From: Candidatus Saccharimonadota bacterium
Lineage (GTDB): Bacteria > Patescibacteriota > Saccharimonadia > Saccharimonadales > HK-STAS-PATE-42
DNA: 64,000 bases
Assembly: GCA_036826375.1 (NCBI GenBank)
Contig: DAISWL010000002.1
Span: 107,499-171,498 of the forward strand
Reading direction: 5' to 3'
Shown here: positions 4,626-51,573 of the stretch, one piece after another
Position numbering within the stretch: position 1 is the first letter of the stretch
How the letters are laid out: every line of letters begins with the position of its first letter
The notes under the pieces: model-generated
The model's input: the letters and a program-made list of their open reading frames with translations, nothing else
Databases searched by the model: none
Told to the model about the DNA's origin: nothing
Position numbers and translations under genes: made by a program

Positions 4626-5402
4626 TTACAAACCGCGTTCATCCTTAAGCTTAATATAGTGAGGTAGAGCATTTTTTGCAGCCTCTTGTTGAGCTAGCTG
4701 CTTACTAGTACCCTCGCCCTCACCTTTAATTTGATCACCTATTACCGCGGCTACTTTAAATATTTTATCGTGATCGGGGCCTACCTCTTCTTTAAGTTTA
4801 TAGATGGGCGTTTCGTTATCTATAAGCTGGGTGAGTTCTTGCAAATAAGATTTAGGATCTCGCCAACTACCAGTCTTCAGAATTTCTTCTAGAGTAACTA
4901 TAATATTTTTGTTTACAAAATCTCGAGAAGCCTCAAAACCAGATTCAAGGTAAAGAGCGCCTAGCAGTGCTTCGAAAGTATTGGCTAATATTTGTTGTTT
5001 AGCGCGTGGTGAATTACTACGTCTTTCCCCGCGGCTCATTCTGATAATATCCCATACGCCTAGCAAACGAGATGCCTCGGCTAGAGATTCAGTTCTGACC
5101 AGAGCGCTGCGCCAAGCTGTTAAAATTCCTTCTGGTTCTTCAAAATTACGATAAAGATATTCAGTAACGATTAACTCTAGTACGGCGTCTCCTAAAAACT
5201 CTAGACGCTCGTTATGTTCATCCGCAGAGCGCTTATGCTCATTAAGGTAAGAACGATGCGTAAGTGCAGCAATTAAGTAATGCATACTCTTAAACTCAAA
5301 CCCGAAAACCTTGGTAGAAAAATCGCGGAATTTGGAATCGTCAATTTTAGTTAGAGGTTTAGATGTTTTAAAAGTGGAATCTTTAGTACTATCTTCTTGC
5401 AT
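4626..5402 (-). CDS. rnc: Ribonuclease III
   Basis: ALTHRSY...NERLEFLGDAVLELIVTEYLY signature plus a C-terminal dsRBD. Confidence 0.9.
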   Translation of the reverse strand: MQEDSTKDSTFKTSKPLTKIDDSKFRDFSTKVFGFEFKSMHYLIAALTHRSYLNEHKRSADEHNERLEFLGDAVLELIVTEYLYRNFEEPEGILTAWRSALVRTESLAEASRLLGVWDIIRMSRGERRSNSPRAKQQILANTFEALLGALYLESGFEASRDFVNKNIIVTLEEILKTGSWRDPKSYLQELTQLIDNETPIYKLKEEVGPDHDKIFKVAAVIGDQIKGEGEGTSKQLAQQEAAKNALPHYIKLKDERGL

Positions 5403-5411
5403 AATTTAAGT

Positions 5412-5927
5412 TTAAAGCTTTTTCTGACGAATTGTTTTCATTCCTAACAGTATTAACTTTTCAATTGCTTCATATTCAATTTTATCTAAAGTGCTACCGG
5501 CATTAAACCAGCTGATGTTATTCATCCATTCCTCTTTCTTTAAAGCGTCCGTATCACCGAGTGCTTCAACTAGAAAAACATGCATAGTCATTAAAACTAA
5601 ACTGTTACCTCGACGGTAGCGAAAACTCACCTTACCTAAATGATCCATAACCCGCATCTCTTTCAATCCTGTCTCTTCTTGAATTTCTCTTTCAGCTGTT
5701 TGACGAGTTGTCTCACCCGGTTCAATATGCCCTTTCGGTATAGTCCATCTATCTTTTGCATCTTGAGTTAACAAAAACTCTAACTCGCCTTTTTTATTTC
5801 TACGATAAACTATGCCCCCAGCGGTTGCTTCTTTAGAAATTTCTTGGATTTTGGGTTGATTACCAACCGAACCATTATTCTTTTTAAAATATTTTGAAAA
5901 ACTTTTTAAAGGATTTTCCATCGCCAT
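5412..5927 (-). CDS. NUDIX hydrolase
   Basis: Nudix box GHIEPGETTRQTAEREIQEETGL. Confidence 0.8.
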   Translation of the reverse strand: MAMENPLKSFSKYFKKNNGSVGNQPKIQEISKEATAGGIVYRRNKKGELEFLLTQDAKDRWTIPKGHIEPGETTRQTAEREIQEETGLKEMRVMDHLGKVSFRYRRGNSLVLMTMHVFLVEALGDTDALKKEEWMNNISWFNAGSTLDKIEYEAIEKLILLGMKTIRQKKL

Positions 5928-7313: not shown

Positions 7314-10300
7314 TTAAACTACCAAATTAACCAACCTACCCGGCACAACTATAACTTTTTTAGGATCTTTGCCGTTTAGTAGTTCTTGAATTCGAGAGTT
7401 TTTAAGTGCAGATTGTTCCATCTGCTCTTTGCTTGCATCGGTATTAAGCTTAATTTCTGCCCGAACTTTGCCGTTGATTTGAACAGCAATGGTGATTTCA
7501 TCTTCTTGAAGGAAGTTAGGATCTACCTCTGGCCAGTGGTTTTTATGAATTGAATCACTATGCCCTAGCTGTTGCCAAAGTTCTTCGGCAATATGAGGCC
7601 CGAAGGGGGCAATCAGCATCAGAGTAGTTTCTAAAGCTTGCTGCCAAACATTATTTTCAACAAAACTGATTTCAGATTTAAGTTTAGTTAGATCGTTAAG
7701 TAGTGACATTGAAGCTGCTATTGCGGTGTTATAGAGGTTAGATTCTAGATCTTGACTGGCTTTATGGGTAGCTTTATTAATTGTAACTAAAAGTTTTTTA
7801 GCTTCTGATTCGCTTAGCTCGGCTGATTCGTTTAAGCTTAAGTAATCTTGAACTAGGTTCCACAACCGGTTGAAGTAGCGGTAAGTTCCTGGAACACCCT
7901 GAGGATCCCACCTGGCGCCTTGTTCTAACGGGGCGGCGAACATTAGGTATGTTCTAAGAGCATCGGCTCCGTAACCGGATTCTATAATCTCTAATGGATC
8001 TGGCCCATTACCAAGCGTTTTAGAAAAAGCGGTTCCATCTTTTGCAACAACTTTGCCGTTGAACAGGAACTGTTTGAACGGCTCGGGATCATCTATTAAG
8101 TTTAATTTATGGAAGAACCTGGTGATGAAACGCGCGTAAAGCATATGCGCAGTGGCGTGATCTCCGCCGTTATAGAAATTAATCGGCATCCAGTTATTTG
8201 CTCGCTCTTTACTGAATGGTTGATGCTGGTTATGAGGATCGCTGTAGCGCAGCATATACCAGCTTGAGCAGATGTAAGTATCTAGCGTATCAGTTTCCCG
8301 CTCGGCCTCGCCACCGCACTGCGGGCAGGTGGTTTTGAGCCAATCTTTGGCGCGCGCCAGTGCACTCCGTCCATCTCCGCTAGGTTTAAAATCATCGAGT
8401 TCCGGCAAAACAACTGGCAATTGATTATCTGGAATTAGTACTGGCCCGCACTTTTCACAGTTTACAATCGGGATTGGAGCTCCCCAATAGCGCTGACGCG
8501 AGACTGACCAATCACGCATTTTGTAGTTAACCTTAAGCTTAGCCAAACCTTTCTTTTCAAGATCCGCCACAATCTTAAGCTTAGCATCTTCGGAGGTTAA
8601 GCCAGTGTATTCACCGGAATTAACTAAAATCATATCCCCATGAAAACTAACCTTATCAGAGATCTTATCAATAAAATCAGACAAGTTATTTAACCCTTTC
8701 TTGCTAGTCATTGGACACATTCGCACGCTGTAAGTATCAAATGCTTTCCCCGTTAGTATAATACTATTATCATTTAAGTGTTGCGAGTCCCTTTCTATAT
8801 GAATATGCTCCTCTCTGCCGATAGATAATATCTCTTCTGAGAATTGATCTACTTCCTGAATAGAAATCCAAAACCTACTGCCAATAAGGGTTCTTTTTAC
8901 CGGTAAATTAAACTTAACTGCGAATTCATAATCTCTTTCATCATGAGCGGGAACGGCCATGATGGCACCAGTTCCGTATCCGCCTAAAACGTAATCTGCT
9001 ACCCAAATTGGAATCTGCTCATTATTTACAGGATTTATGGCATAAGAGCCGGTAAATACCCCTGTTTTTTCTTTGCTAGCCTGGCGTTCAACTTCAGTTT
9101 TTCGGCCGCTTTGTTTAATATATTCTTCTACTTCAGATTTATTTTCTGGCGTACTTAAGCTTAAGGCGAGCTCACTTTCTGGAGCAAGCACCATGAAGGT
9201 GGCTCCGAAAAGGGTATCCGCACGAGTTGTGAAAACGGTGATATCTGGAATAATTGGGGCATACCAATTATTATTAGCGAGCCAATCCCAAGCAGATTCA
9301 TTATCTCCTGGCTCGGATTGATTATTAAACTTATTTCCTAGCTTACAAATATCATATTGATTATTATCGTCTAAAATAAAGCGTTCTATGGCGCCATCTT
9401 TATGTTTGAATATAAATACCACTTCATTATTAGTTAGGTATTCATTCCAAAAGCCTGGTTCCATTTTTTCAATTATCAGTTTTTCGAAAGCATCGCTTCT
9501 AATAACTGGAAATTCTACACAAAGGTACCCGGAATTAGTGATTGATTCAACTTTTCCGCCCAGTTTGGATATATCATCTTCAGTAATCTCCCTCTGGCCC
9601 ATAATGTAAGTTCTGGCCATATCTGCACTTGGATTCAAAACCTTTTTAACGCTAAACTTAATTTCGGCGCCTTCGCTTCGGCCGATCCAGTTTTTTTGTG
9701 CTGTCTTAACGCTATCAGTCCAATCTAAATTATCTGTGGCCTCAAGAAGTTCATCGGCGTATTCGGTGATTTTGAAAAACCATTGTTTTACTTCGCGTTT
9801 TTCAACGGTAGGATCATCCTTGCCTTCATGCCTCCAGCATTTACCATCTACTATCTGTTCGTTGGCCAATACTGTTTGGCACTTTTCACACCACCATTGC
9901 TGGCGAGCATCCTGGTAGGCCAAGCCGTTTCTGTGCATTTGAGAAAAAATCCACTGTGTCCATTTGTAATATTCTGGAGTGTGAGTTGCAATTTCTTTTT
10001 CCCAATCATTAGACCAACCCATAGCCTGATATTGCTTGTGGTAGTTAGGGATTATTGTCGCCATGCTTTCTTGAGGAGAAACTCCAGCCTTGATGGCATA
10101 GTTTTCAGCTGGCAAGCCGAAGGAATCCCAACCAACCGGATGGTAACTCTCATAACCTTGTTGGCGTTTGAAGCGGGCTTTGACATCGCTGATTGTGTAG
10201 TTCATGGCATGTCCAACGTGCAGACCCGCTCCGCTTGGGTAGTTAAACATGCTCATGCCAATATATTTTGGCTTATCAGAATCTAAATCTGTGGTGTAGA

Positions 10301-10364
10301 TGTTGGTTTCTTGCCAGATTTTCTGCCATTTTGGTTCGATTACTTTGGGATTATACTTGTTCAT
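7314..10364 (-). CDS. leuS: Leucine--tRNA ligase with two extra inserted segments
   Basis: PSGAGLHVGH (HIGH), VFTTRADTLFGATF (start of CP1 editing domain), AHDERDYEFA, RDWSVSRQRYWG. The KMSKS position reads AFSKT. 1016 aa. Confidence 0.95.
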   Translation of the reverse strand: MNKYNPKVIEPKWQKIWQETNIYTTDLDSDKPKYIGMSMFNYPSGAGLHVGHAMNYTISDVKARFKRQQGYESYHPVGWDSFGLPAENYAIKAGVSPQESMATIIPNYHKQYQAMGWSNDWEKEIATHTPEYYKWTQWIFSQMHRNGLAYQDARQQWWCEKCQTVLANEQIVDGKCWRHEGKDDPTVEKREVKQWFFKITEYADELLEATDNLDWTDSVKTAQKNWIGRSEGAEIKFSVKKVLNPSADMARTYIMGQREITEDDISKLGGKVESITNSGYLCVEFPVIRSDAFEKLIIEKMEPGFWNEYLTNNEVVFIFKHKDGAIERFILDDNNQYDICKLGNKFNNQSEPGDNESAWDWLANNNWYAPIIPDITVFTTRADTLFGATFMVLAPESELALSLSTPENKSEVEEYIKQSGRKTEVERQASKEKTGVFTGSYAINPVNNEQIPIWVADYVLGGYGTGAIMAVPAHDERDYEFAVKFNLPVKRTLIGSRFWISIQEVDQFSEEILSIGREEHIHIERDSQHLNDNSIILTGKAFDTYSVRMCPMTSKKGLNNLSDFIDKISDKVSFHGDMILVNSGEYTGLTSEDAKLKIVADLEKKGLAKLKVNYKMRDWSVSRQRYWGAPIPIVNCEKCGPVLIPDNQLPVVLPELDDFKPSGDGRSALARAKDWLKTTCPQCGGEAERETDTLDTYICSSWYMLRYSDPHNQHQPFSKERANNWMPINFYNGGDHATAHMLYARFITRFFHKLNLIDDPEPFKQFLFNGKVVAKDGTAFSKTLGNGPDPLEIIESGYGADALRTYLMFAAPLEQGARWDPQGVPGTYRYFNRLWNLVQDYLSLNESAELSESEAKKLLVTINKATHKASQDLESNLYNTAIAASMSLLNDLTKLKSEISFVENNVWQQALETTLMLIAPFGPHIAEELWQQLGHSDSIHKNHWPEVDPNFLQEDEITIAVQINGKVRAEIKLNTDASKEQMEQSALKNSRIQELLNGKDPKKVIVVPGRLVNLVV

Positions 10365-17059: not shown

Positions 17060-17380
17060 ATGAAAAAAATATTTGTATCAAACCTACCCTACTCTGTTAG
17101 AGATGAGCAGCTAGCTGAAATTTTTGCCGATTTCGGACCAATCGAAAGCGCTGTTGTTATCATGGAACGCGAAACTGGACGCTCTAAGGGCTTTGGTTTT
17201 GTTGAAATTGTTGACGACGCTAAAGCAGAAGAAGCAATAGCTAAGCTTAATGGCGCAGATTATCAAGGAAGAAACTTGAACGTTAACGAAGCTCGTCCTA
17301 AAGAAGATCGTCCTCGACGTGATTTCAATGGAGGCGGTAATCGTGATGGTGGATCTTTCCGCCAAGGCAACAGATTCTAA
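17060..17380 (+). CDS. RRM-type RNA-binding protein with Gly/Arg-rich tail
   Basis: RNP2 IFVSNL and RNP1 KGFGFVE. Confidence 0.9.
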   Translation: MKKIFVSNLPYSVRDEQLAEIFADFGPIESAVVIMERETGRSKGFGFVEIVDDAKAEEAIAKLNGADYQGRNLNVNEARPKEDRPRRDFNGGGNRDGGSFRQGNRF

Positions 17381-17411
17381 GTTTAATAAACTGAACAGAA
17401 ACTCTGTTTTT

Positions 17412-17440
17412 AAAAACCCCTGGATACTCAGGGGTTTTTA
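17412..17440 (+). terminator. Rho-independent terminator of the RRM protein gene
   Basis: AAAAACCCCTG-GATACT-CAGGGGTTTTT hairpin with a T-run. Confidence 0.7.
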
Positions 17441-17695
17441 ATTACCCAGTAATCAACGCTTATAACTATCAACCTAGTGTATTCTGATGGATTACTACCT
17501 ATTTAAATTTAATCATAGCGTAAAAAAGATAACTAATCGGACGCAAGCGCAAGTAGTTAGACTATGCTTAAAATAACAAAACTTCGCTATTTGTTCCTGA
17601 TACATAGTATTTACACAATATCACAAAAAAGCTTAGTTTTATACAATATTAACAGAGTATGTTAGATGTTTTAGTCGAAACATTCGTTAATGCAT

Positions 17696-17863
17696 ACGTT
17701 ATGCAAAACTCCGCTTCGCTACGTTTTGTATAATGGGCAGGGTCGTTAAACTTAGTTATAGCTTCGCTTTCGCTTCGCATAACTAAATTCTTTCCGTAAT
17801 CCTTTATCCTTGATATACTAACGTATATCGGAGTAAAGGACTCCGGAAAGACCCTGCCCATTA
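17696..17863. repeat. 168-bp structured repeat, copy 1 (upstream of the restriction-modification gene)
   Basis: 166/168 identical to 21202-21369. It contains an 11-bp hairpin, a 14-bp long-range inverted repeat TAATGGGCAGGGTC...GACCCTGCCCATTA, and three internal hairpins. Confidence 0.9.
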
Positions 17864-17948
17864 TGCCCAATACTAGGACGACAGTACAACCAACAACAAA
17901 CCGACAGAAAAAACTAACTTTGGACTGAAAAATTTGAGAACAGAATAA

Positions 17949-20900
17949 ATGACATTAGATCAATACATTGACAACATAAATAAACGATATAAACTTGGTA
18001 ATGCGACCGAGCATAGTTTTCGTGGCGACCTGCAACAGCTTTTAGAAAGTTTTGTACCTGACATTAGGGCGACCAATGAACCCAAAAGACAATCTTGCGG
18101 AGCACCCGACTACATTCTGACAAAAAAAGAAATCCCAGTAGGTTTTATTGAAGCAAAGGACATTGGCGACAAAGACCTTGAAGGAGCAAAGAAAACAGGA
18201 AACAAAGAACAATTCGACCGTTATAAGGCTTCGCTAAATAATTTAATTTTTACCGACTATTTAGACTTCCATTTATACATTGACGGAATTTTTATTACAA
18301 AAATTGCCATTGCTGAAATACAAAATGGAACCATCGTTCCATTGCCTAACAACTTCGCTACTTTTACAAATCTCATCAAAGACTTTGCTTCACATGTTGG
18401 GCAAACCATAAAAAGTTCAAAAAAACTGGCAGAAATGATGGCGGGCAAAGCCCGCCTGCTTTCTGATATTATTGGCAAAGCTTTGACAAGTGATGAAACA
18501 AATCACGAAGACAGTACATTGAAAGACCAAATGTTGGCTTTCAAACAAATTTTGATTCACGACATTACACCTAAAGGATTTGCAGATGTTTACGCCCAAA
18601 CTATTGCTTATGGTATGTTTGCGGCTCGTTTGCACGACCCAACTTTGCCAACTTTTAGCAGACAAGAAGCCGCTGAATTGATTCCAAAATCAAATCCGTT
18701 TTTGAGAAAACTGTTTGGTTACATTGCTGGACCTGACATTGACGACCGTATTAAATGGATTGTAGATAGTTTGGTTGAAATATTTTTAGCGTGTAACGTT
18801 GAAGAAATTTTAAAGAATTACGGGAAATCTACTAAAATGGAAGACCCAATTATCCATTTTTACGAAACTTTTCTTAGTGAATACGACCCTAAATTGCGAA
18901 AGGCTCGAGGCGTTTGGTACACACCTCAACCAGTCGTAAATTTTATAGTTCGTGCGGTTGACGACATTTTAAAAACCGAATTTGATTTGCCACAAGGTTT
19001 GGCAGACACGAGCAAAACCAAAATCAAAGTTGATGTGCAAGGTAAAAAAGTGGAACAAGAAGTTCACAAAGTACAAATTCTTGACCCAGCAACAGGAACA
19101 GGTACTTTTTTGGCAGAAGTGGTAAAACACGTTCACAAAAAATTCCAAGGACAACAAGGTATTTGGAGCAATTATGTAGAAACGCATTTATTGCCACGCT
19201 TGAATGGTTTTGAGTTGCTTATGGCGAGTTATGCAATGGCACACTTGAAATTAGATTTGCTTTTAACCGAAACAGGTTACAAACCGACAACAAATCAACG
19301 GTTCAAAGTTTACCTAACCAATAGTTTGGAAGAACATCACCAAGACACAGGAACTTTGTTCGCCAATTGGTTAAGCACCGAAGCGAACGAAGCCAACCAT
19401 CTCAAACGAGATACACCAGTAATGTGTGTAATTGGAAATCCGCCATATGCGGTAAGTAGTACGAATAAAAATGAATGGATTGATAACTTGATTTCTGATT
19501 ACAAGAAGGACTTGAACGAAAAAAGCTATAATTCTCTTTCTGATGACTATGTTAAATTCATCCGATACGGACAGCACTTCGTTGAAAAAAACGGAAGCGG
19601 TATTTTAGCATATATATCTAATAACAGTTTTATAGATGGCGTGGTATTTCGCCAAATGAGAAAATATTTGCTAGAATGTTTTGACACAATTTATATTTTA
19701 GACTTACACGGAGATTCTAAAAAGCAAGAAGTTTGCCCTGATGGTTCTGCTGATAATAATGTATTTGATATTATGCAGGGGGTTTCAATAAACATCTTTG
19801 TTAAAACAGGAAAGAAAAAGAAAAATGAATTAGGGAAAGTATTTAATTTTGATTTACAAGGAAAACGTGACTTTAAATATAATTTCTTAAATGAAAATTC
19901 TTTAAAGACTTTAAATTGGAATTCATTAAATTATTCAGCACCTAACTATTTTTTTGTGACAAAGAATTTTATAGGTGATACTGAATATCAATTAGGTTTT
20001 AAAGTTGACCAAATTTTCAATAAGTATAATAACGGCATTGAAACAGGCAAGGACAGCTTCTTTTATAATATATCAAAAAAAGTATTAATTGAAAATTTAG
20101 CTTTTGCTTTTCAAAACAAGGAAAGCAGTATAAATAAATTTGAAATAACTAATACGGATAGTTTTAAGTTCTTAGATAAATTTAATTCAGAGGAATTTAA
20201 TCAAAATAAAATTACAAATGTTTCATATCGCCCTTTTGACATTGTAGCAAGTTATTATGATGTAAAACTTCAAAGGCGTCCTGCATTTGATACAATGAGA
20301 AATATGTTACAGCCTAATTTTGGACTGCTTACGCCAAGGCAAGTTACAGACAATTTTAAGCATATTTTTATATCAAAACACCCTACCGACTGCAATTTAA
20401 CTGGAACAGCTAAGAAATTTGGTAGTGCTCCAATTTTCCCACTTTATCTTTATCCTGAAACCAACGGACAACAAACCATCGGGCAAACCGCAGAAAGAAC
20501 GCCAAACCTAAACACAGAAATTGTAAAGCAAATAGCAGATAAATTAGGTTTAACTTTCACCAACGAAAAAGAAACAACCAAAAACACTTTTGCACCAATT
20601 GACATTTTAGATTACATCTATGCAGTGTTACATTCGCCAACTTACCGAGAGAAATACAGAGAATTTTTAAAAATTGATTTTCCAAGAGTACCATACCCAA
20701 AAGACAAAGACACATTTTGGCAATTGGTAAAATTAGGTAGTGAAATCAGGCAAATTCATTTATTGGAAAGTGCAACTGTTGAGCAATACATTACACAATA
20801 CCCAATAGACGGTGACAATATTGTAACTAAACCAAAATATCAAGACGGTAAAGTTTACATAAACGACACGCAGTATTTCAACAACGTTCCGAAGACAGCT

Positions 20901-21065
20901 TGGGAGTTTTACATCGGAGGTTATCAACCAGCACAAAAATGGCTAAAAGACCGCAAAGAAAGAACACTTGAATTTGACGACATTTTGCACTATCAAAAAA
21001 TCATTGTAGCGTTGAGTGAAACAGACAGATTGATGAAAGAAATTGATAAAATTGAAATTGAATGA
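17949..21065 (+). CDS. Single-polypeptide type IIG/IIL-like restriction-modification enzyme (N-terminal PD-ExK nuclease, gamma-class N6-adenine methyltransferase, C-terminal specificity domain)
   Basis: APDY...GFIEAKD (PD...ExK), DPATGTGTFL (motif I), IGNPPYAVSS (NPPY), C-terminal AWEFYIGGYQPAQKWLKDRK (type ISP/YeeA-like C-terminal domain). Confidence 0.85.
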   Translation: MTLDQYIDNINKRYKLGNATEHSFRGDLQQLLESFVPDIRATNEPKRQSCGAPDYILTKKEIPVGFIEAKDIGDKDLEGAKKTGNKEQFDRYKASLNNLIFTDYLDFHLYIDGIFITKIAIAEIQNGTIVPLPNNFATFTNLIKDFASHVGQTIKSSKKLAEMMAGKARLLSDIIGKALTSDETNHEDSTLKDQMLAFKQILIHDITPKGFADVYAQTIAYGMFAARLHDPTLPTFSRQEAAELIPKSNPFLRKLFGYIAGPDIDDRIKWIVDSLVEIFLACNVEEILKNYGKSTKMEDPIIHFYETFLSEYDPKLRKARGVWYTPQPVVNFIVRAVDDILKTEFDLPQGLADTSKTKIKVDVQGKKVEQEVHKVQILDPATGTGTFLAEVVKHVHKKFQGQQGIWSNYVETHLLPRLNGFELLMASYAMAHLKLDLLLTETGYKPTTNQRFKVYLTNSLEEHHQDTGTLFANWLSTEANEANHLKRDTPVMCVIGNPPYAVSSTNKNEWIDNLISDYKKDLNEKSYNSLSDDYVKFIRYGQHFVEKNGSGILAYISNNSFIDGVVFRQMRKYLLECFDTIYILDLHGDSKKQEVCPDGSADNNVFDIMQGVSINIFVKTGKKKKNELGKVFNFDLQGKRDFKYNFLNENSLKTLNWNSLNYSAPNYFFVTKNFIGDTEYQLGFKVDQIFNKYNNGIETGKDSFFYNISKKVLIENLAFAFQNKESSINKFEITNTDSFKFLDKFNSEEFNQNKITNVSYRPFDIVASYYDVKLQRRPAFDTMRNMLQPNFGLLTPRQVTDNFKHIFISKHPTDCNLTGTAKKFGSAPIFPLYLYPETNGQQTIGQTAERTPNLNTEIVKQIADKLGLTFTNEKETTKNTFAPIDILDYIYAVLHSPTYREKYREFLKIDFPRVPYPKDKDTFWQLVKLGSEIRQIHLLESATVEQYITQYPIDGDNIVTKPKYQDGKVYINDTQYFNNVPKTAWEFYIGGYQPAQKWLKDRKERTLEFDDILHYQKIIVALSETDRLMKEIDKIEIE

Positions 21066-21201
21066 GAATAAACACTGGGCATAACAGCACCTACAAGAAA
21101 TTGGCGGTTCAGTGCTCCGCAGACACATTTGTGCTTAATCAAAGTTTGGTTCTCCGCATCAACATTTGTGGTGAAAATCGCCACCTTCGCCAAGCCCGAA
21201 A

Positions 21202-21369
21202 ACGTTATACAAAACTCCGCTTCGCTACGTTTTGTATAATGGGCAGGGTCGTTAAACTTAGTTATAGCTTCGCTTTCGCTTCGCATAACTAAATTCTTTC
21301 CGTAATCCTTTATCCTTGATATACTAACGTATATCGGAGTAAAGGACTCCAGAAAGACCCTGCCCATTA
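21202..21369. repeat. 168-bp structured repeat, copy 2 (upstream of the GRAM/PH gene)
   Basis: See 17696-17863. It differs at 2 positions: G/A at 17702/21208 and G/A at 17845/21351. Confidence 0.9.
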
Positions 21370-21424
21370 GCGGTCATGCTTTGACGAACGTGCAAACTTA
21401 AAACTAATCGACAAAAAATAAATA

Positions 21425-21967
21425 ATGATAGAAATTAGAAATTCAATTTTAGCTGGACTCGCATTTGGAACATTAATGGCACTTTTTTTTGCTTTTCCAT
21501 TTGGCGTTCATCACGCTTTAACTGTCGGGCCAATTTCTGGACTTTTTTTTGGGACAATCACATATTTCTTTATAACTTCTAACACAGTTAAGAAGCAAAC
21601 GCAAATTGAAAATACTGACGGTAAACCAATTATTCGTTCAGGGGGTGCAAATCACTTTATAAATGGTGAAGCAGTAGGTGGCAAACTTTATCTTCTGACA
21701 GATAAACTTCAATTTCAATCTCATAGTTTCAATTTTCAAAACCACGGACAAATTATAGACCTTAAACAAATAAAAGAAATAAGTTTTTTCAACACACTTG
21801 GACTAATTCCTAATGGACTTTCAGTTACAACGCTTGGTGGAAAATCAGAAAAATTCGTTGTTAATGGAAGAAAACTTTGGAAAGAAGAAATTGAAAAACT
21901 AAAGCAGACAGGAAATAAAATGGATGCAAATATTGAAGAACAAAACTCCGCTTCGCTCAGTGAGTAG
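21425..21967 (+). CDS. Membrane protein with a C-terminal GRAM/bacterial PH-like domain
   Basis: Two N-terminal TM helices, then GGKLYLLTDKLQFQSHSF...EISFFN...KFVVNGRKLWKEEIEKL, typical of GRAM/YokE-like PH domains. Confidence 0.55.
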   Translation: MIEIRNSILAGLAFGTLMALFFAFPFGVHHALTVGPISGLFFGTITYFFITSNTVKKQTQIENTDGKPIIRSGGANHFINGEAVGGKLYLLTDKLQFQSHSFNFQNHGQIIDLKQIKEISFFNTLGLIPNGLSVTTLGGKSEKFVVNGRKLWKEEIEKLKQTGNKMDANIEEQNSASLSE

Positions 21968-21992
21968 AGTTATTAAGCTTAATACGCCCTAG

Positions 21993-23141
21993 CTAAATCT
22001 TAAACTTAACCACCCGCTCATCTTCAAACCCAAGCTTCTTAGCAGATTTAAACTGCTTATCAATTTTTCTACCACTGAAATCTACCGCTACTGTTTTGCC
22101 TTCAGCCCTTAAACTTAGGGCATAGTTTTGAGCAGCTTCAAAATCCGCTTCGTTTTCAACCATCAAATAAATATCAGCTGAGGTATTAAGCTTGGGGGCT
22201 AGATTGTTGCTTTCCAAAAAGTTCATCAGTGTGGTATCCCCCATACCGAAGCCGATGGTTGGAATCGGGTCAACGCCGAATATTCCGACCAATCCATCAT
22301 AGCGTCCGCCGCCAAACATCGAGCGATTATTTTTGGGGTCAAGATCAAACACTTCAAACACAATATCGGTGTAATAATCAAAACCTCGAGCGATTGTTGG
22401 AACAAACCGAACATTATTTAGGCCTAAACTTTTGGCACGCTGGAGCAGTGTTTTTAATTCATTGTTCATAGTATCGCCGCTGAGGAAATCCTCAACTACC
22501 TGAGGCTCAGCTACAAGTTCGCTAAGCTTAAGGTGGAATTCATCACGCGATATTTTATCGTAAGTATCAATTAAGCGCACCACATCCGCAGCAGTTCGCT
22601 TAGGCTTAGCGGATTCAATCACTTGGTTCATTAGCTTTCTAGAATTGATTCTGATTTCAAAACTTTCTTGATTGGCCCCAAACGCCATAACTAGCTGATG
22701 CGCCATCTGTAGCATCTCAACCTCTGCTTCAAGATTTTCCACCCCAAATAAATCAACATTAAGTTGCCAGAATTCGCGAGTTCGCCCGCGTTGCATTCGC
22801 TCATACCTAAAGCAATTTGGAATGGAGAAAAGTCGGAGCGGAAAGCCGAGTTCCTGACGTCGAGCCGCTACCATTCGGCTAACGGTTGGTGTCATCTCTG
22901 GCCGGAGTGTGACCTCTCGCCCGCCACGATCAGTGAAGCTAAAGGTTTGCTCTCTGACGATCTCCTCGCTTGTTTTGCTGGTGTAGAGTTCAATGGGCTC
23001 AATTACGCTGGCATCGTATTGTTGGTAGCCAAAGCTCTGGCAGACCTGTTGCCATTTAGTGAAGATGTACTGACGCAGAGCGAAATCTTCTGGGTAGAAA
23101 TCCCTAGTGCCTTTGTATGGGTTCAAGCTTAATTTGGTCAT
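21993..23141 (-). CDS. hisS: Histidine--tRNA ligase
   Basis: GTRDFYPED, TLRPEMTPTVSRMV, FRYERMQRGRTREFWQLNVDLFG, and a C-terminal anticodon-binding domain. Confidence 0.9.
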   Translation of the reverse strand: MTKLSLNPYKGTRDFYPEDFALRQYIFTKWQQVCQSFGYQQYDASVIEPIELYTSKTSEEIVREQTFSFTDRGGREVTLRPEMTPTVSRMVAARRQELGFPLRLFSIPNCFRYERMQRGRTREFWQLNVDLFGVENLEAEVEMLQMAHQLVMAFGANQESFEIRINSRKLMNQVIESAKPKRTAADVVRLIDTYDKISRDEFHLKLSELVAEPQVVEDFLSGDTMNNELKTLLQRAKSLGLNNVRFVPTIARGFDYYTDIVFEVFDLDPKNNRSMFGGGRYDGLVGIFGVDPIPTIGFGMGDTTLMNFLESNNLAPKLNTSADIYLMVENEADFEAAQNYALSLRAEGKTVAVDFSGRKIDKQFKSAKKLGFEDERVVKFKI

Positions 23142-23884: not shown

Positions 23885-25150
23885 ATGAAGAAACTAATTG
23901 AATATATAAAAACTAATAATGAACTTGAGCCTAGTGCCGTTTTAAGTACTTTGAATTATATTAATGAATTATGGCCAAGCCTAACGGTTAAACCTAAAGA
24001 TGTCCAACGCGATGGAACTCTTATAAAAGTGGACCGCTCTTTTTTGGCTCCCTCTGTATCTGATGGATCAAATTTTGATTTTAGCGAAATGTATTACTGG
24101 GATAGCTATTTTATGTGCATAGGCTTTATGCAACAAAAAACTCATAAACAGTTAGTTGTTGGCATTATTGATAATCTGGTTCAGATGTTCAATAAACTCC
24201 ACGTTATACCTAATGCCAATAGAACATACCTTAGTAGTCATTCACAGCCTCCGTTTATGACTACGTTTGCCCTTCAGGCTTATGAGGCTTACGGATTAAG
24301 CTTAAGCTGGCTTAAAAACGTTATAGAAACATCTGAAAGAGAATACTATAACGTGTGGGTTAATACAAAAAAACCTCATTGGCGCAATGTTTATAAAGGC
24401 TTAAGCAGATTTTACGATATAAATATGCTAAATGATATGGCGGAAGCCGAAAGTGGCTGGGATATGACTCCACGCTTTAATAGATTGGCTCTAGAATTTC
24501 TGCCCGTAGATCTCAACACGCTACTCTATAAATATGAAAAAGATTTTGCCGAGTTCTATGGTTTAGTAGGCAATCAGGAACTGGCCGATTTGTGGTCGGA
24601 AAAAGCCACCAAAAGAGCTCACACAATGCACAAATTAATGTGGAGCAAAGTTAGAAGCATGTACTTCGATTACAACTTCATTAAAAAACGAAAAGGCTTA
24701 GTAGCCAGCCTGGCTACATATTACCCTATGTGGGCCGGCATGGTCAGCCAAGATGTCGCCAGTAAGCTTAAATCGAAACTAAAAGTATTTGATTATGCTG
24801 GAGGCCTATCTGCTACCAGCGCTATCATTAAAGGCCCGAGATCATCAATCATTAGCCGTACGCCTACTCAATGGGCCTACCCCAACGGATGGGCCCCCTT
24901 ACACTATTTAACCACAGAGGGGCTAGAGAAATATGGCTATCACGATGAGGCTAAATCTATTGCCCTAAAATGGCTCAAAACTTGCACCGATTGGTACTTA
25001 AAACATGGAGAAATAATAGAAAAGTATAACGTTGCCCAACCCAATAAGTTGCCTCAAGAGGGAGTCTATCCTAATCAAGTGGGCTTCGGCTGGACAAATT
25101 CAATTTACATTTATTACGCCAATAAATACTTTCTTAATAAAGATGATTAG
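23885..25150 (+). CDS. Alpha,alpha-trehalase (GH37)
   Basis: YYWDSYF, SGWDMTPRF, QWAYPNGWAPLHY, GFGWTN. The ORF-track start at 23792 is a TTG. The ATG at 23885 (MKKLIEYIK) is more plausible. Confidence 0.85.
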   Translation: MKKLIEYIKTNNELEPSAVLSTLNYINELWPSLTVKPKDVQRDGTLIKVDRSFLAPSVSDGSNFDFSEMYYWDSYFMCIGFMQQKTHKQLVVGIIDNLVQMFNKLHVIPNANRTYLSSHSQPPFMTTFALQAYEAYGLSLSWLKNVIETSEREYYNVWVNTKKPHWRNVYKGLSRFYDINMLNDMAEAESGWDMTPRFNRLALEFLPVDLNTLLYKYEKDFAEFYGLVGNQELADLWSEKATKRAHTMHKLMWSKVRSMYFDYNFIKKRKGLVASLATYYPMWAGMVSQDVASKLKSKLKVFDYAGGLSATSAIIKGPRSSIISRTPTQWAYPNGWAPLHYLTTEGLEKYGYHDEAKSIALKWLKTCTDWYLKHGEIIEKYNVAQPNKLPQEGVYPNQVGFGWTNSIYIYYANKYFLNKDD

Positions 25151-25165
25151 CCGCATCTTTTAATC

Positions 25166-25855
25166 CTAAATTCTGTTTTTTCTAAAAGCTTTAAATGAAA
25201 AACTATCCGGATCCCGAAGTAGCTCCCTTGCAACTTGCCTGCCCATTATGCACGATACTACGGCGGAACTAGCCATAACCGCATAATTACCAGCAGTTTC
25301 TAGCCCGGCTAAAGTACCTAAAATTCCGATACATATCCCGCCCACCTCGGCGAAATTGGTTTGGGCCATCGCTTTAATTCCCGATAAAGACATACTGGTT
25401 TCTCCGCTAGCTTTCTGTCTGCGTGCATCAAAATAGTTATAGATGTTAAAGCCCGCCGCAACAGCCATTATTAGTGTATTCGGTAACCCCGGCGCTTCAA
25501 AACCTTCATTCAATAATGATCTAGCCTCCTCGGCACCTACTGCCGCAACAGCTATATGCCCAATATAGGCAGATGCTCTAATCTTTTGAGTGGCCGATTC
25601 TCTGTTTTTACTCACCTTTTCTATAAGTTTTAAAAAGTTAGATTTTCCATCAGCCCCAGTACTACATCCATAACTAGTGGCTTTGCTAATCAAAAAATCG
25701 GCGCCCTCCATTAGCATCGATGAAAAAGACATTGCACTGTGCCCAGAACACTCGGCCACTGCGCTGGCGATTATGGATCCCCCTTGAGTTAATAAGAATC
25801 TAGAACGAAGCTTATCTAGGGGTGTTCTGGGTCCGGCTCGTTCCACACTTGACAT
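25166..25855 (-). CDS. Hypothetical Gly/Ala-rich, probably membrane-associated protein
   Basis: 229-aa ORF. I recognise no family. Confidence 0.4.
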   Translation of the reverse strand: MSSVERAGPRTPLDKLRSRFLLTQGGSIIASAVAECSGHSAMSFSSMLMEGADFLISKATSYGCSTGADGKSNFLKLIEKVSKNRESATQKIRASAYIGHIAVAAVGAEEARSLLNEGFEAPGLPNTLIMAVAAGFNIYNYFDARRQKASGETSMSLSGIKAMAQTNFAEVGGICIGILGTLAGLETAGNYAVMASSAVVSCIMGRQVARELLRDPDSFSFKAFRKNRI

Positions 25856-41755: not shown

Positions 41756-41868
41756 CGCATTTCAAACATCTGCTTTAGCTGCTAATGAAGATTATAAGCT
41801 AAAAAATCTAGTAGAACTATTCCAGCTTTCAGGCTCGTTATTAACAAGTGGAGTGGTGGTTTAGTAAT

Positions 41869-42183
41869 ATGAGTCTATCACAAAACAAACGTATAGGCAG
41901 ACCTACAATAATCACGCCAGATACTGTCAGGAAAGTCATAGTAGCTAGAAAGCGTGGCTTGAGCATAAGACAAGCCTGTGCGACCTCTGGTATATCTCAC
42001 GAAGCCTTTTACTACCATACTCGCCACAACCGTGAGTTTACTTACATTTTAGGGCTATCTCAGGACTCAATTAAGGAAAGAGCTAGACTAGGAGTTGTAG
42101 ATGCAATCATGCAGGGTGATTTAACAACCTGTAAGTGGTATTTAGAACGTAAAGACCCTGAGTTCAGAAAGTCAGGCAAATGA
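41869..42183 (+). CDS. Small helix-turn-helix protein (terminase-small-subunit/transposase-HTH-like)
   Basis: GRPTIITPDTVRKVIVARKRGLSIRQACATSGIS (HTH) and C-terminal KWYLERKDPEF. ATG at 41869 (the ORF track starts at the GTG at 41848). Confidence 0.45.
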   Translation: MSLSQNKRIGRPTIITPDTVRKVIVARKRGLSIRQACATSGISHEAFYYHTRHNREFTYILGLSQDSIKERARLGVVDAIMQGDLTTCKWYLERKDPEFRKSGK

Positions 42184-42482
42184 GCCAAGAAGAGGCTCTG
42201 AGATACTTTATAGAAGACTTCAGGTTGTATGTAGCATCTGTTCATTGGAAAACTGCTTGGTCATATCAAAAGTTTGCTCCTCATGAATACACGGTCTCTG
42301 ACTGGAACGTCCAGCGTAGACCCTGGTTCGAGCAAATGGTACTCGGTATAAGAAAATATGGCTACAAAGAAGACTTTGGTAAAACTACATATATTTACCT
42401 TAATCTAGACGGTAGAAAGTATTGGACTCAGGGCGCATCAGTGAAGCAAACAATTTTGATAAACAGGGCTAAACTTGGATAA
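42180..42482 (+). CDS. Hypothetical protein (PHEYTV ... YWTQG ... INRAKL motifs)
   Basis: 100-aa ORF overlapping the previous stop by 4 nt (ATGA). Family not confidently recognised. Confidence 0.4.
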   Translation: MSQEEALRYFIEDFRLYVASVHWKTAWSYQKFAPHEYTVSDWNVQRRPWFEQMVLGIRKYGYKEDFGKTTYIYLNLDGRKYWTQGASVKQTILINRAKLG

Positions 42483-42514
42483 CACTGCATCTAGAAAGGA
42501 ACGCTCGGTTGTTA

Positions 42515-45205
42515 CTATTTGTCTCCGAAGACTCGTATTACTTCGTCGAATGACCTCAACTTATCTTTATTCCAATCTTCTTGTTTAATATACAGGGCTT
42601 TGTATGTCATCCTGCTCTGTCTGTTATTAACATCTTCGCACCACTTCTGCAGACGCTTGAACTTCAACTTGGCATCGTCATCTTCACGCCCCTTAGTCTC
42701 AACAATATATACGGTCTTACTATCTACTTTGACAAAAAAATCAGGATAATAGTTGGCAATAAACCCTTCTGAGTTCTTGTACTCAACCCTAAGTGCACTA
42801 GCTTCCTTATTTTGGAAGTTCTTAGTAAATGAAATTACGTCTTCACACGACTCGATAAATCCTGCAAAAACTAGCTCGAAGTCACTATCGCCAACAATCT
42901 TATTGAAGACTGATTTTTTAGGTACTACAAAACCCTTGTCATTAACTACGAATGGTCGTGACTCACTTATCTTTATATAATTTTTTATCTCGGTATCGCC
43001 ACTGTCTTGAACAGTTAATTCATTTATGGCTTTCTTGAACGTATCTTTGATTAGTCGGATGTATTCTACTTCAGAAAGGTTCCTAAGCATATTTAGGTCA
43101 GACAGCTCCACTTCATTTTCAAACATGTACTGGTGGACGAACTCTCTGACCTTTCCGAACAGAATATCATAACAACCAAATAGACGTAGTTCTCTCATAA
43201 TAGCTTGGGCAAAGAATCCAATCACGCTCTGATAGTCTGGGCTAATTTCACCACTTAACACAGTTGTGTGGTGTTCGTTCTCACCAACTACATCCTTGAA
43301 AACAATTTCTCTCTTTTCCTGTTCTGTAAAAGTTTTGATTGATACTTTTTTGTTTCCAAACTTCGATACATCAAGGTTAGCGAGATTCTTATATTCTCTT
43401 TGTATCCGAGGAGTCATAATTGGTATTTCAATATCTAACTTATCGATATCCTTTTGAGGGTTCTCACTATCAACTTCAACAACCATCGGTGCTATTGGCT
43501 TTGCTCCAGTACCCATAGCTTTTTTCTCTAAGATAACACCCTCTCCTTTGATTGATTCAACAAACTCCATGAAGGCAGGCGTTCCAACAACGCTTACATA
43601 TTCCTTTACATCATCTCTGCCGAAAAACATTCTCCGTAGTCCACGACCTAGTGTTTGTTCTGGCAAAATCTTTGAGTCAGCCGCATACGGTCTCAGACCA
43701 ACTATAGTGGTGACATTCTTAACATCCCAGCCCTCTTTTAGCATCATCACAGATACAATGACCTTGAATGGGCTCTCCCAGCTATCGATTTCATTGGCTT
43801 GTTTGCGGAGCACATCTAAATCATCCTTATTTTTGCCTGATACGCTTTCTGAAACATCACCACTTTTATTAGTGTGAATAGTAAGCACGTTATCACGCAA
43901 ATCTGCAAAACTAGTCCTGATATAATCTGCAACCTCATCACAGTTCTTGGTGTCATCCGTCATTATAAATAGGATGGATTTTTTGCCCATCGGCTTTAAT
44001 TCCTCGTAGGTTTTCCTCCATTCTTCAACACCCAAGTCAATGAAGTCTCTATATTTCTCACTAAATCGTGAACTTTGATTCTCATTTAATTTCCCACGAC
44101 TTGCTGCATCTGGAACTACAGGGTTCTTAACAATTTGCTGATGTATTGCCTCAACGAGAGGGTAGTCACTTATCGTCTGCACAAAGATGGAACCATCTCT
44201 TTTTTTAGGAGTAGCAGTGACATCAAGTTGTAGCGACAGACCAGAACCCTTCTGTTTTAATCGATTGTCGATGTCTTGAATCGATTTTGCCCATGCTAGT
44301 TTTTCATCCCAAATATGATGAGCTTCATCGTTAATGACGATGAGTTCGTCTATATCCCTAACTATCATTCCAAGGTCAACGCTGGTGTCGTTAGTCCTAG
44401 TTACTGGCTTATTCCCCAAGAAGTATCTCGATGTATCTTCATCACTTGGACTAGCCTCCTTTACATCAGATTCAAATACACGATGTATGTTGGTTAGAAA
44501 TATATTTCCAGTGTCCGAAACGGTGCGTAAGTCATCTTGGAGGTGAAGTGTAAGCTGGAAGTCATCTTGCCAGCTCCTACCACGAAAGCCGTTATCTGGT
44601 AAGACTGGGTCTTCATGAAAAATCTTTAAGCCCTCAAAATCATTCTTTATACGTTCAAAAACAATCACGTTCGGACAGATTAGTAAGAAGTTTTTAGAAA
44701 GTAATGAGTCATCTTCATATTTCTTGTGGAAATATGCCCACGCTAACACAAGACTCATAACTTTTGTCTTACCTGCACCAGTTGCCATTTTAATGACTAG
44801 TCGAAGCCACTCTTCAGTAAACATTCCAGGACTTAATACGCCAGTAGAGTTATAACGTATTAAATCGTACTTATCTTTTACCTTAGCGACTTCATACAAC
44901 CAAATAACAGTTTCAAGAGCCTCTCTTTGAGCAAAGTAATATCTGAAGTTATACGAAGTACCGTCTGAGTTGTACATAATGTGGTCTTCTTTGAACCACC
45001 AGTTTAGTAAGGCTATAGATGTGTCACTCGCACCATCGTAGTTTGATTCTCGCCATTCTTTAACCTTTTTCCGTAAATCTGCAACTAGTGGTGGGAGTAG
45101 TTTTTCATGTCCTTTGTCCCTTATATCTTCGGCTGCAGGAAACCATCTAATACTGGGGTCTAGGATGACATAAGGGTCAGTTGGGAAGTCTTTGTGAAGT
45201 GCCAT
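42515..45205 (-). CDS. res: Type III restriction enzyme Res subunit (SF2 helicase plus C-terminal PD-(D/E)xK nuclease)
   Basis: Walker A ATGAGKTKV, DEAH box NDEAHHIW, motif VI QTLGRGLR, C-terminal YYPDFFV...VETKG. Confidence 0.85.
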   Translation of the reverse strand: MALHKDFPTDPYVILDPSIRWFPAAEDIRDKGHEKLLPPLVADLRKKVKEWRESNYDGASDTSIALLNWWFKEDHIMYNSDGTSYNFRYYFAQREALETVIWLYEVAKVKDKYDLIRYNSTGVLSPGMFTEEWLRLVIKMATGAGKTKVMSLVLAWAYFHKKYEDDSLLSKNFLLICPNVIVFERIKNDFEGLKIFHEDPVLPDNGFRGRSWQDDFQLTLHLQDDLRTVSDTGNIFLTNIHRVFESDVKEASPSDEDTSRYFLGNKPVTRTNDTSVDLGMIVRDIDELIVINDEAHHIWDEKLAWAKSIQDIDNRLKQKGSGLSLQLDVTATPKKRDGSIFVQTISDYPLVEAIHQQIVKNPVVPDAASRGKLNENQSSRFSEKYRDFIDLGVEEWRKTYEELKPMGKKSILFIMTDDTKNCDEVADYIRTSFADLRDNVLTIHTNKSGDVSESVSGKNKDDLDVLRKQANEIDSWESPFKVIVSVMMLKEGWDVKNVTTIVGLRPYAADSKILPEQTLGRGLRRMFFGRDDVKEYVSVVGTPAFMEFVESIKGEGVILEKKAMGTGAKPIAPMVVEVDSENPQKDIDKLDIEIPIMTPRIQREYKNLANLDVSKFGNKKVSIKTFTEQEKREIVFKDVVGENEHHTTVLSGEISPDYQSVIGFFAQAIMRELRLFGCYDILFGKVREFVHQYMFENEVELSDLNMLRNLSEVEYIRLIKDTFKKAINELTVQDSGDTEIKNYIKISESRPFVVNDKGFVVPKKSVFNKIVGDSDFELVFAGFIESCEDVISFTKNFQNKEASALRVEYKNSEGFIANYYPDFFVKVDSKTVYIVETKGREDDDAKLKFKRLQKWCEDVNNRQSRMTYKALYIKQEDWNKDKLRSFDEVIRVFGDK

Positions 45206-45206
45206 A

Positions 45207-47342: not shown

Positions 47343-47545
47343 TTGTTTTTCTCCATTATTTTCAATACATCTTCTTTGTGATATCGTCTATCGCCCCTTG
47401 TACCAATACGGACAGCCACTAGATAACCTTTTTTGTCCCAAGCCCTAAGAGTATTTGGATGACATCCAAGCATCTCACAAGTCTGTTTAAGTGTTAGTAG
47501 TTTTGGTCGTTTGCTACCAGATTGTGTCATACTATAAGTATACAC
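47339..47545 (-). CDS. MerR/excisionase-type (HTH_17) DNA-binding protein
   Basis: LLTLKQTCEMLGCHPNTLRAWDKKGYLVAVRIGTRGDRRYHKEDV. Its stop overlaps the mod start by 4 nt. Confidence 0.7.
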   Translation of the reverse strand: MYTYSMTQSGSKRPKLLTLKQTCEMLGCHPNTLRAWDKKGYLVAVRIGTRGDRRYHKEDVLKIMEKNK

Positions 47546-47578
47546 GACTTAATAGACTAGAAGTGCTCGGAAGATGTG

Positions 47579-48325: not shown

Positions 48326-48422
48326 GCTTGAATGAGATGTAGTGAGCGAAAATAAGACTTACTGAGCCTACTAAATCGACATTTAGTTACTGTTATAACC
48401 TTGCAATCACGAGGTTATTTTT

Positions 48423-48635
48423 ATGAGTAAACAAATTAAAGTCGAGCCAATTAGAAACCAGTATAAGTTCAGTAAAAAGGAGCTGGATATAATACTGAGC
48501 AATGAGTCGATTGCCAAATTGACAGGCTTTCTAGACGTTCTCATACAAATGGACGTCGCACAAAAGCAAACTAAATCTCAAGAGGATAATAATGAATCAA
48601 ATGAAGATAAGCGAACTGAAGCTAACTCTAGTTAA
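48423..48635 (+). CDS. Hypothetical small acidic protein
   Basis: 70-aa ORF overlapping the next ORF. Confidence 0.3.
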   Translation: MSKQIKVEPIRNQYKFSKKELDIILSNESIAKLTGFLDVLIQMDVAQKQTKSQEDNNESNEDKRTEANSS

Positions 48636-48858: not shown

Positions 48859-48869
48859 GTGCTCAGGCT

Positions 48870-49973: not shown

Positions 49974-50014
49974 ATATACATTGTTAAGTTATGGTAAGAT
50001 ATAAGGAGAATAAT

Positions 50015-51508: not shown

Positions 51509-51573
51509 TAGGACTTGAACCTACGACACCCGGTTTTGGAGACCGGTGCTCTAGCCAACTGAGCTACACCCCT
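51497..51573 (-). tRNA. tRNA-Trp (anticodon CCA), CCA end encoded
   Basis: Hand-folded cloverleaf: acceptor AGGGGTG/CACCCCT, D arm GCTC-AGTTGGCTA-GAGC, anticodon arm CCGGT-CTCCAAA-ACCGG, variable GTGTC, T arm GTAGG-TTCAAGT-CCTAT, discriminator G, CCA. Confidence 0.9.

Follow-up and report, generated by a model that had tools for sequence, protein, structure and literature searches.

Organization of the RRM-hisS region

In a 64-kb stretch of DNA from a Candidatus Saccharimonadota bacterium (here called the window), two genes located between a gene for an RRM protein and hisS are each preceded by a copy of the same repeat. They encode a type IIG restriction-modification (R-M) enzyme, assigned by Pfam and PADLOC, and a GRAM-domain membrane protein, and their GC content is 33 to 35% vs 39% for the window. 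The hisS homologues carry Candidatus Saccharibacteria names, and the site is the RRM-hisS gap of a Candidatus Saccharibacteria chromosome. We consider it quite probable that the region holds a gene-cassette array of the integron type, with no integrase in its vicinity, similar to the attC-site clusters that have no integron integrase (CALINs).

The repeat is 168 nt long (17696-17863 and 21202-21369; start-to-start distance, 3506) with 2 mismatches between the copies. It contains the 17-mer CAAAACTCCGCTTCGCT, which is present exactly three times in the window, always on the + strand, at 17704, 21210, and 21941; in 100 shuffles, 0 occurrences were expected. By these counts, the repeated element and the three 17-mers reported in the original prediction are real. 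Its position 21941 was exact, while 17703 and 21209 were each 1 too low, and a degenerate fourth copy at 17577 turned out to be at chance level, its local alignment score being reached in 65 of 500 shuffles. The repeat folded far better than shuffled sequences on both strands (z scores of -8.3/-10.7 for RNA and -6.1/-7.0 for DNA). In the predicted fold, a 5' hairpin (TTATACAAAAC, a 13-nt loop, and GTTTTGTATAA) is followed by a three-way junction that is closed by a perfect stem of 15 to 17 bp (TATAATGGGCAGGGTC/GACCCTGCCCATTATA). Rfam yielded nothing relevant, either at gathering thresholds for the whole window or at E values up to 10 for 17400-22100.

Homologous cassettes in other arrays fix the cassette boundaries at (G/A)|TTA (17698|99, 17860|61, 21204|05, and 21366|67), which excludes the 168-bp element as att site of the gene cassettes. 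The repeat represents a separate unit of 162 nt without an open reading frame (ORF), located at gene-cassette junctions, which we named el. The layout is thus a spacer ending in G, el copy 1, the type IIG cassette with a canonical attC, el copy 2, the GRAM cassette, whose attC is lost, and hisS:

17381-17698, + strand: noncoding spacer after the RRM-protein gene, ending in GCATACG; the array starts past G17698
17699-17860, + strand: el copy 1, 162 nt, without ORF; hairpin 1 at 17699-17733, 17-mer at 17704-17720
17728-17734, 17735-17744, and 17850-17859, + strand: parts of el copy 1, namely the R''-like GTATAAT and the two stem arms; the last base is A17860
17861-21204, + strand: type IIG R-M cassette, 3344 nt, 35% GC, starting with TTATGCC and ending in GAAAACG; ORF at 17949-21065
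21079-21210, + strand: canonical attC of the type IIG cassette; R'' at 21079-21085, R' at 21204-21210
21205-21366, + strand: el copy 2, 162 nt; 17-mer at 21210-21226; R'' GTATAAT exactly reverse-complementary to A+TTATAC
21367-21951, + strand: GRAM-domain membrane-protein cassette, starting with TTAGCGGTCATGC; ORF at 21425-21967; 3' truncated, own attC missing
21940-21957, + strand: solo 18-mer ACAAAACTCCGCTTCGCT, identical to the 5' arm and loop of el hairpin 1
21958-21992, + strand: short junction to the hisS stop codon
21993-23141, minus strand: hisS, flanking gene

The type IIG and GRAM genes probably belong to integron cassettes

The attC of the type IIG cassette is 132 nt long, within the usual attC range of approximately 57 to 141 nt, and begins 14 nt past the type IIG stop codon, on the same strand. 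Its core sites, R'' GCATAAC and R' G|TTATAC, have kept the AAC/GTT triplets, with A and not Y at position 3 of R''; they contradict the earlier statement that RYYYAAC/GTTRRRY cores are missing from the region. R'' lies 126 nt before the cassette end and is the exact (7/7) reverse complement of G+TTATGC, the junction of the circularized cassette (17861-21204). The variable region of the attC includes 32-nt direct repeats (21107-21175).

A covariance model, R1, was built solely from 14 attCs of three other arrays (L138, L139, and L144; L numbers denote the loci and contigs that were compared). AAC...CGTT is invariant in these attCs; their consensus structure comprises R box, spacer, and L box, with compensatory changes in 12 of the 17 pairs. 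R1 matched 21079-21210 with 36.2 to 36.4 bits (E = 7.5e-8; 1.8e-9 with filters off) and had no further match in 17300-22100. Furthermore, BLAST aligned 21079-21210 to attCs of L138, L139, L141/142, and L144-146, with E values down to 5e-15. The check by attC covariance models that had been suggested originally was thus positive with a model of our own.

The GRAM gene provided a second link to arrays elsewhere. In the metagenome contigs L138-L140 and L144-L146, it lies in same-strand arrays with spacers of approximately 200 nt; L149, a 4.17-Mb contig, has more than 20 same-strand array genes. The GRAM cassette in such arrays begins with G|TTAGCGGTCATGC, directly after the G of R', and continues to an attC with R'' CGCTAAC, which is complementary to that start. 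We conclude that the GRAM gene in those arrays is a textbook integron cassette. In the window, TTAGCGGTCATGC directly follows the repeat (CCCA|TTAGCGG, 21366|21367), and the cassette has 85% nucleotide identity to the GRAM cassettes of L139/L144. Homologues of the protein (65 to 84% identity; native length, 164 aa) carry Bacteroidota names (Flavobacterium, Pedobacter). At a minimum, the GRAM cassette and the attC of the type IIG cassette derive from a cassette pool that occurs in Bacteroidota-type arrays.

The complementarity between R'' and the junction of the circularized cassette was 7/7 not only for the type IIG cassette and el copy 2, but also for the HD-domain cassette of L020, the GRAM cassettes of L139/L144, and the methyltransferase cassette of L012. 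It was 6/7 for the radical-SAM-like cassette of L013 (as present in the array) and for el copy 1. The gene cassettes follow the classical integron plan, in which an ORF without a promoter precedes an attC, and R'' of this attC is reverse-complementary to the circularized junction.

The original prediction had divided the region into units of 3506 and 732 bp bounded by the 17-mer, starting with ACGTTTTG and ending in GCTTCGCT. Since the homologous cassettes set the boundaries at (G/A)|TTA, these units and their ends were in the wrong register. That circularization of such a unit rebuilds a hairpin is correct and trivial, because any cut within a hairpin has this outcome. The integron-like cassette logic of the prediction was borne out in kind by the match to the attC model and by cargo replacement among strains (see below), and the checks it had suggested were appropriate.

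Two side observations concern the type IIG cassette and its attC. A cassette at 1910-2919 of L144 has its first bases, TTATGC.CAA.TATAGGACGACA, in common with the type IIG cassette (17861-17950), and its attC, with the same R'' GCATAAC AGCACCTAC, is 70% identical to 21079-21210; its ORF (267 aa) is unrelated. One cassette "shell" thus carries differing cargo. In the window, 25073-25251 combines a weak R1 match (12 bits, E = 0.2) with an exact 14-nt match to the 3' end of el (CTGCCCATTATGC.). Both matches overlap the ends of two coding genes and were rejected as probably due to chance.

The distal end of the array and the solo 18-mer

Homology of the last unit to other GRAM cassettes ends after AACAAAACT, at approximately 21951, with no attC beyond. 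The GRAM ORF of the window is a frameshifted allele of 180 aa (1-nt deletion, AAA for AAAA before GCAGACAGG), which reads through the 3' untranslated region (3'UTR), and for this reason the third 17-mer looks coding. It had originally been placed at the very end of the gene, which applies to the frameshifted allele only, since the native length of 164 aa puts it in the 3'UTR.

The solo 18-mer was present in every strain, including L011, which has no el. A fold test detected no local structure in the solo 17-mer region. In other arrays, the first 8 to 9 nt of this copy (ACAAAACT) form part of the native GRAM 3'UTR. The 18-mer is most economically explained by what is left of a third el, joined at this microhomology, or by a common origin of the two sequences. 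An attR-like crossover product is a conceivable source with no other support. An attL/attR-style crossover inside the 17-mer was dropped once the GRAM homologues had given the true cassette boundaries.

Slot 1 of the array differs between strains

Using exact-protein look-ups in many assemblies, we recovered the locus from strains whose flanks are 96.8 to 99.8% identical to the window. The RRM-hisS gap contained the following:

L007: el and GRAM only
Window, L014, L125, and L136: el, type IIG, el, and GRAM
L012: el, SAM methyltransferase, el, and GRAM
L013: el, radical-SAM-like protein, el, and GRAM
L134 and protein P0002: further cargoes, unknown proteins
L020: HD-domain gene right after the spacer, then a differently sequenced structured element; no el
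L011: decayed type IIG gene; both el copies lost through deletions

The variation was always in slot 1, and GRAM always occupied the last slot. In L020, a different cassette directly abuts the spacer end (ACG|TTAAATG), and the structured element is the own attC of the HD-domain cassette (ATTTAAC-a-stem...stem-gat-GTTAGCG). At L011 (10470-13200), the type IIG gene is pseudogenized and diverged, and two separate microhomology deletions took both el copies and the GRAM start. Deletion and replacement variants, which the original prediction had proposed to look for in relatives, are thus present.

In a sister species (hisS 78% identical; 899-kb contig), the same gap contains neither el nor the spacer. 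A KAP-family NTPase gene and a small kinase-like gene occupy the gap on the opposite strand in the sister species locus L131 (11170-13292). We conclude that the RRM-hisS gap is a general integration or defense hotspot, with or without cassettes. The comparison of the strains and the sister species shows that cassettes were replaced at this site and excludes a simple tandem duplication, one of the outcomes that had been named as refuting the cassette model. A sequence of the sister species resembling the 17-mer was rejected as an attB-like site, since only 13 of 17 positions matched, in coding sequence and at chance level.

The left spacer is conserved at 92 to 98% identity in the conspecific strains. 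Its fold was not significant, and the attC model did not match it. Tried as a decayed el or a decayed attC, it was rejected as well, with an alignment not above shuffles and a negative covariance model search. The spacer end possibly represents an entry point similar to attG/attI, or a remnant that has decayed.

The gene-less unit el

Every el copy is flanked by TTA on both sides. The last base of el joined to the first six (ATTATAC) is exactly complementary to the internal GTATAAT, which opens the closing stem. GCTTCGC is found in the loops of el hairpins 1 and 2, whose AT-rich stems are alike; on the minus strand it reads GCGAAGC, already known as an extra-stable DNA mini-hairpin (PMC13037366). 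Junctions without el were seen in L020 and in all Bacteroidota-type arrays fetched.

The el unit was confined to this locus, with 2 copies in the window and 4 clusters of spurious ORFs among 5.8 billion proteins. BLAST detected no match in plasmids or phages, and there was none in the Bacteroidota-type arrays fetched. The 17-mer had 98 matches in GTDB representative genomes, among which the host species is not included; none ran on into el, and most were due to chance. In viral contigs, there were 2 chance matches to the 17-mer and 0 to the stem pattern, and a metagenome scan with a 19-mer of the left flank returned three unrelated chance matches. The proposed search for further copies thus found el in conspecific strains and at no other locus.

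Sixteen of the 98 17-mer matches, from unrelated phyla, have a GTTTTG-like arm within 0 to 3 nt (expected, approximately 1.8): L030, L037, L038, L044, L053, L063, L068, L076, L080, L085-L087, L092, L103, L117, and L119. They include Methylomonas, Chlorobium, Peribacteria, Omnitrophota, Butyrivibrio, and Bacteroidota. Since such arms occur in unrelated phyla, the hairpin CAAAAC-TCCGCTTCGCT-NC-GTTTTG is widespread. L068 (and L104, just beyond the count) resembles a canonical attC apex, and others are in nested TTCGCT...GCTCAGAATGAC palindromes.

Extra hairpins with the loop of el hairpin 1 and other stems are present in 3' regions of cassettes, namely TTTCTCT-TTCGCTTCGCTAC-AGAGAAA in L012 (11925-11950) and TTCTGTT-TCGTTTCACTTCA-ACAGAA in L134 (within the 93 nt upstream of its el copy). 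A gene-less cassette also occurs in another array: L138 contains an ORF-less cassette of approximately 730 nt twice (5193-5920 and 8462-9192; 93.7% identity). Both copies are directly upstream of a cassette starting with TTAGCGGT(C/A)ATGC, which parallels the position of el before GRAM.

Several other candidates for el were rejected. The dif site is a 28-bp sequence with XerC/XerD arms in an 11-6-11 arrangement (E. coli and B. subtilis sequences). In a comparison by eye, with no formal search, the spacer of GTTTTGTATAA-TGGGCAG-GGTCGTTAAAC measured 7 nt and its XerD arm was poor. For a retron noncoding RNA, a hammerhead or other ribozyme, an IS110 bridge RNA, and a Correia-like miniature inverted-repeat transposable element (MITE), also judged by eye, the defining partner or motif is missing.

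Weighing of the explanations

Several findings weigh against an integron-type array. There was no tyrosine recombinase or integron integrase and no attI in the 64-kb window, where Pfam scans covered 51 of the 58 ORFs with 100 aa or more (the skipped ones are nested within longer ORFs); the earlier statement that no integrase is nearby holds for this range. Nor was a tyrosine recombinase found within 10 kb on either side of the L011 and L012 loci. A complete integron, with intI, attI, and Pc adjoining the array, was not found in the window. In the type IIG attC, several L-box pairs are broken, the fold energy is not better than that of shuffled sequences, and the site may be decaying. R1 is family specific and failed to match the attCs of the methyltransferase, radical-SAM-like, and HD cassettes. 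At the right end, the exact solo copy of 18 nt is not accounted for by exchange at G|TT and needs an extra event, and the regular alternation of el and gene is unlike simple insertion of single cassettes by attC × attC recombination. Moreover, in all copies and strains the el cores GTATAAT and A|TTA have AAT/ATT and not the nearly universal AAC/GTT, the perfect el stem has neither the unpaired central spacer nor the extrahelical bases by which attCs mark the recombinogenic strand and folds on both strands, and the 5' hairpin of el competes for the same bases, which counts against a classical attC. R1 did not match the el sites (17728-17866 and 21234-21372); since it also missed other self-consistent attCs, its silence on el says little. 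The array nevertheless has most of the tested features of integron cassettes; with no intI found in the window, it falls short of a complete integron and is best classed as CALIN-like.

The original prediction implies a new site-specific system with a crossover in hairpin 1, located at the 17-mer or past it, units consisting of the three-way junction, a gene, and 25 nt, and the solo 17-mer as an attR-like product at the array end. The exact solo copy at the distal end of every strain, the recombinase-core-like hairpin 1 with its 11-bp inverted arms, and the constant last slot with variation restricted to slot 1 are in its favor. We nevertheless regard it as very unlikely: independent homologues set the gene-cassette boundaries at G|TTA, every such unit would enclose a complete canonical attC, the cassettes of L020 have neither el nor the 17-mer at the left junction, and no recombinase is associated with the region. 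At the third site, the first 8 to 9 nt of this putative crossover point are native to the 3'UTR of Bacteroidota-type GRAM cassettes. The probability of a mere tandem duplication of a native intergenic region without mobility is close to nil. Apart from the two near-identical copies 3.5 kb apart in the window, the findings oppose it, as unrelated genes swap between the copies in conspecific strains, L007 has a single copy, and the sister species lacks the entire structure.

For el itself, the leading reading is an atypical ORF-less cassette, which we favor tentatively. It is rather unlikely that el is an active, self-propagating cassette whose site, with AAT/ATT cores and a perfect stem, is used by a recombinase different from classical IntI, or by an IntI of relaxed specificity, encoded elsewhere in the genome, or that el serves as a homology handle. 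We consider it unlikely that el is a small non-autonomous transposable element mobilized in trans, either an IS200/IS605-like palindrome-associated transposable element (PATE), dependent on hairpins in single-stranded DNA, or a MITE with TTA duplication; its target would be CGTTA/GTTA, coincidentally the R' core of these attCs. The TTA on both sides of el, with the empty sites ACG-TTA-AATG and GATG-TTA-GCGG in L020, could be a target-site duplication and is equally the shared core. The perfect 17-bp stem without attC-type bulges or AAC/GTT triplets and the similar hairpins 1 and 2 with their extra-stable loop motif also fit a transposable element. Its outer ends, however, are not inverted repeats (the inverted repeat begins 29 nt inward from the left end), dispersed copies are absent, and the scanned ORFs of the window include no transposase of the Y1 (required for a PATE, the hairpins of which are present), DDE, or any other type. 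In addition, the complementarity of the first six bases to the internal GTATAAT is a prediction for integron cassettes. Quite unlikely, finally, is an expression or RNA module (promoter, structured 5' leader, or insulator) that is kept by selection upstream of imported promoter-less cassettes and copied only by homologous recombination or duplication following natural transformation. A perfect TATAAT just upstream of each gene (17729-17734 and 21235-21240), one el before every gene cassette in most strains, and a very stable RNA fold would suit this function, and identical copies of 162 to 168 bp offer sufficient homology for RecA-mediated exchange. Yet a -35 box and a correctly spaced TG are missing, and the promoter/terminator scan was at background (20 vs 16.6 expected) and did not list the TATAAT site. 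The lack of an Rfam match, the few single-nucleotide polymorphisms in el with no strand preference and no covariation, and the L020 cassettes without el also oppose it, and the position of el exactly at G|TTA junctions is left unaccounted for.

On the basis of the cassette anatomy, boundaries, homology to other arrays, and slot-1 cargo replacement between strains, all of which are observed, an integron-type array would have arisen as follows. Strand exchange would take place at G|TT on folded attC strands, catalyzed by an integron integrase that works in trans or whose gene lies in another part of the genome. The entry point would be a genomic G|TT site, matching the attG route. On this route a G|WT core is retained, and it has been put forward as a possible source of single attC sites lacking integron integrases (SALINs) and of some small CALINs (bioRxiv 10.1101/2022.09.11.507474). 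The el unit may have spread to the junctions as a cassette, a step that we propose with reservation. Blocks of cargo and el could later have been exchanged between strains, either by the integrase or by homologous recombination over the identical el copies and flanks.

Other features of the window

On the left, the array is neighbored by tyrS, a sortase gene, clpP, and the RRM-protein gene, and on the right by hisS, an NYN-domain gene, and a trehalase gene. The only recombinase in the scanned ORFs is a large serine recombinase (49991-51508), which abuts a tRNA gene (51500-51573, minus strand). It belongs to a separate island (41848-51573) with a type III R-M system (res, 42515-45205; mod, 45207-47342) and unknown genes. 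A GmrSD-type restriction endonuclease gene at 314-2356 is the third defense gene of the window. Two aminoacyl-tRNA synthetases have unusual insertions: the PheRS beta chain (53207-56791, 1194 aa) contains inserted DUF559 and alpha/beta-hydrolase domains, which are unusual for this enzyme class, and LeuRS (7314-10364) has 1016 aa and in some strains (L011, 381-3308) 975 aa with a NUDIX match, an unusual domain insertion.

Discussion

CALINs and SALINs are attC clusters and single attC sites, respectively, without an integron integrase (Cury et al. 2016; IntegronFinder 2.0, PMC9024848). The array resembles them in its same-strand promoter-less ORFs with attC, its G|TT boundaries, its small size, and the absence of intI nearby. 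As in attG insertion, it is located at an ordinary chromosomal intergenic site whose entry reads G|TT (bioRxiv 10.1101/2022.09.11.507474). It differs from CALINs and SALINs in its Saccharibacterium host, the turnover of cassettes between conspecific strains, the last cassette without attC, and the gene-less unit at the junctions. The VCR (Vibrio cholerae repeat) arrays of Vibrio are chromosomal integron arrays of the sedentary kind, in which the attCs are homogeneous and cassettes are repeated or have no ORF. Similarities to sedentary arrays (Vibrio VCR; L138, L139, and L149) include attCs that are near identical within a lineage, with branched variable regions, repeated ORF-less cassettes (L138), and a cargo of R-M, toxin-antitoxin, and unknown genes. 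Unlike the attCs of sedentary arrays, el has AAT/ATT, a perfect stem without spacer or bulges, and an extra, competing 5' hairpin.

Integron recombination sites are also targeted, in one orientation, by IS1111-attC insertion sequences and group IIC-attC introns, which are 1 to 2 kb long and encode a transposase or reverse transcriptase. The el unit shares with them the insertion at integron sites in one orientation; in contrast to them, it has only 162 nt, no ORF, and no Rfam family match. With PATEs of the IS200/IS605 type and CTX-phage-type att sites it has in common a predicted dependence on folded single-stranded DNA, the lack of terminal inverted repeats, and insertion next to a short fixed sequence. 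It differs from them in that no TnpA or Xer-type site was recognized and its copies are confined to one locus.

Few complete integrons are listed even in Bacteroidetes (IntegronFinder 2.0, PMC9024848). In the literature, we found no report of integrons or cassettes in Saccharibacteria, Patescibacteria, or other bacteria of the candidate phyla radiation (CPR). What is new here is the host, the sharing of cassettes across phyla, their turnover at strain level with no integrase in view, and the atypical nature of el. Accessory genes are shared among bacteria to a large part through integron cassettes, and CPR genomes are tiny. Canonical cassettes of the Bacteroidota-type pool are present here in a core-gene neighborhood of Saccharibacteria, with a content that varies between strains. 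The origin of the cassettes and the differences between the strains thus point to a recent cross-phylum cassette flow into an episymbiont, with rapid turnover at a defense hotspot.

If el is a decaying ORF-less cassette, the finding amounts to no more than a known type of element recorded in a new host. Since el departs from defining attC features, it could also show how cassettes are maintained, expressed, or exchanged without an integrase. If el were a homology handle, it would let a naturally competent CPR cell swap defense cassettes without an integrase. Alternatively, if el were active, ultra-small CPR episymbionts would run their own cassette-exchange system, which recruits integron cassettes of Bacteroidota.

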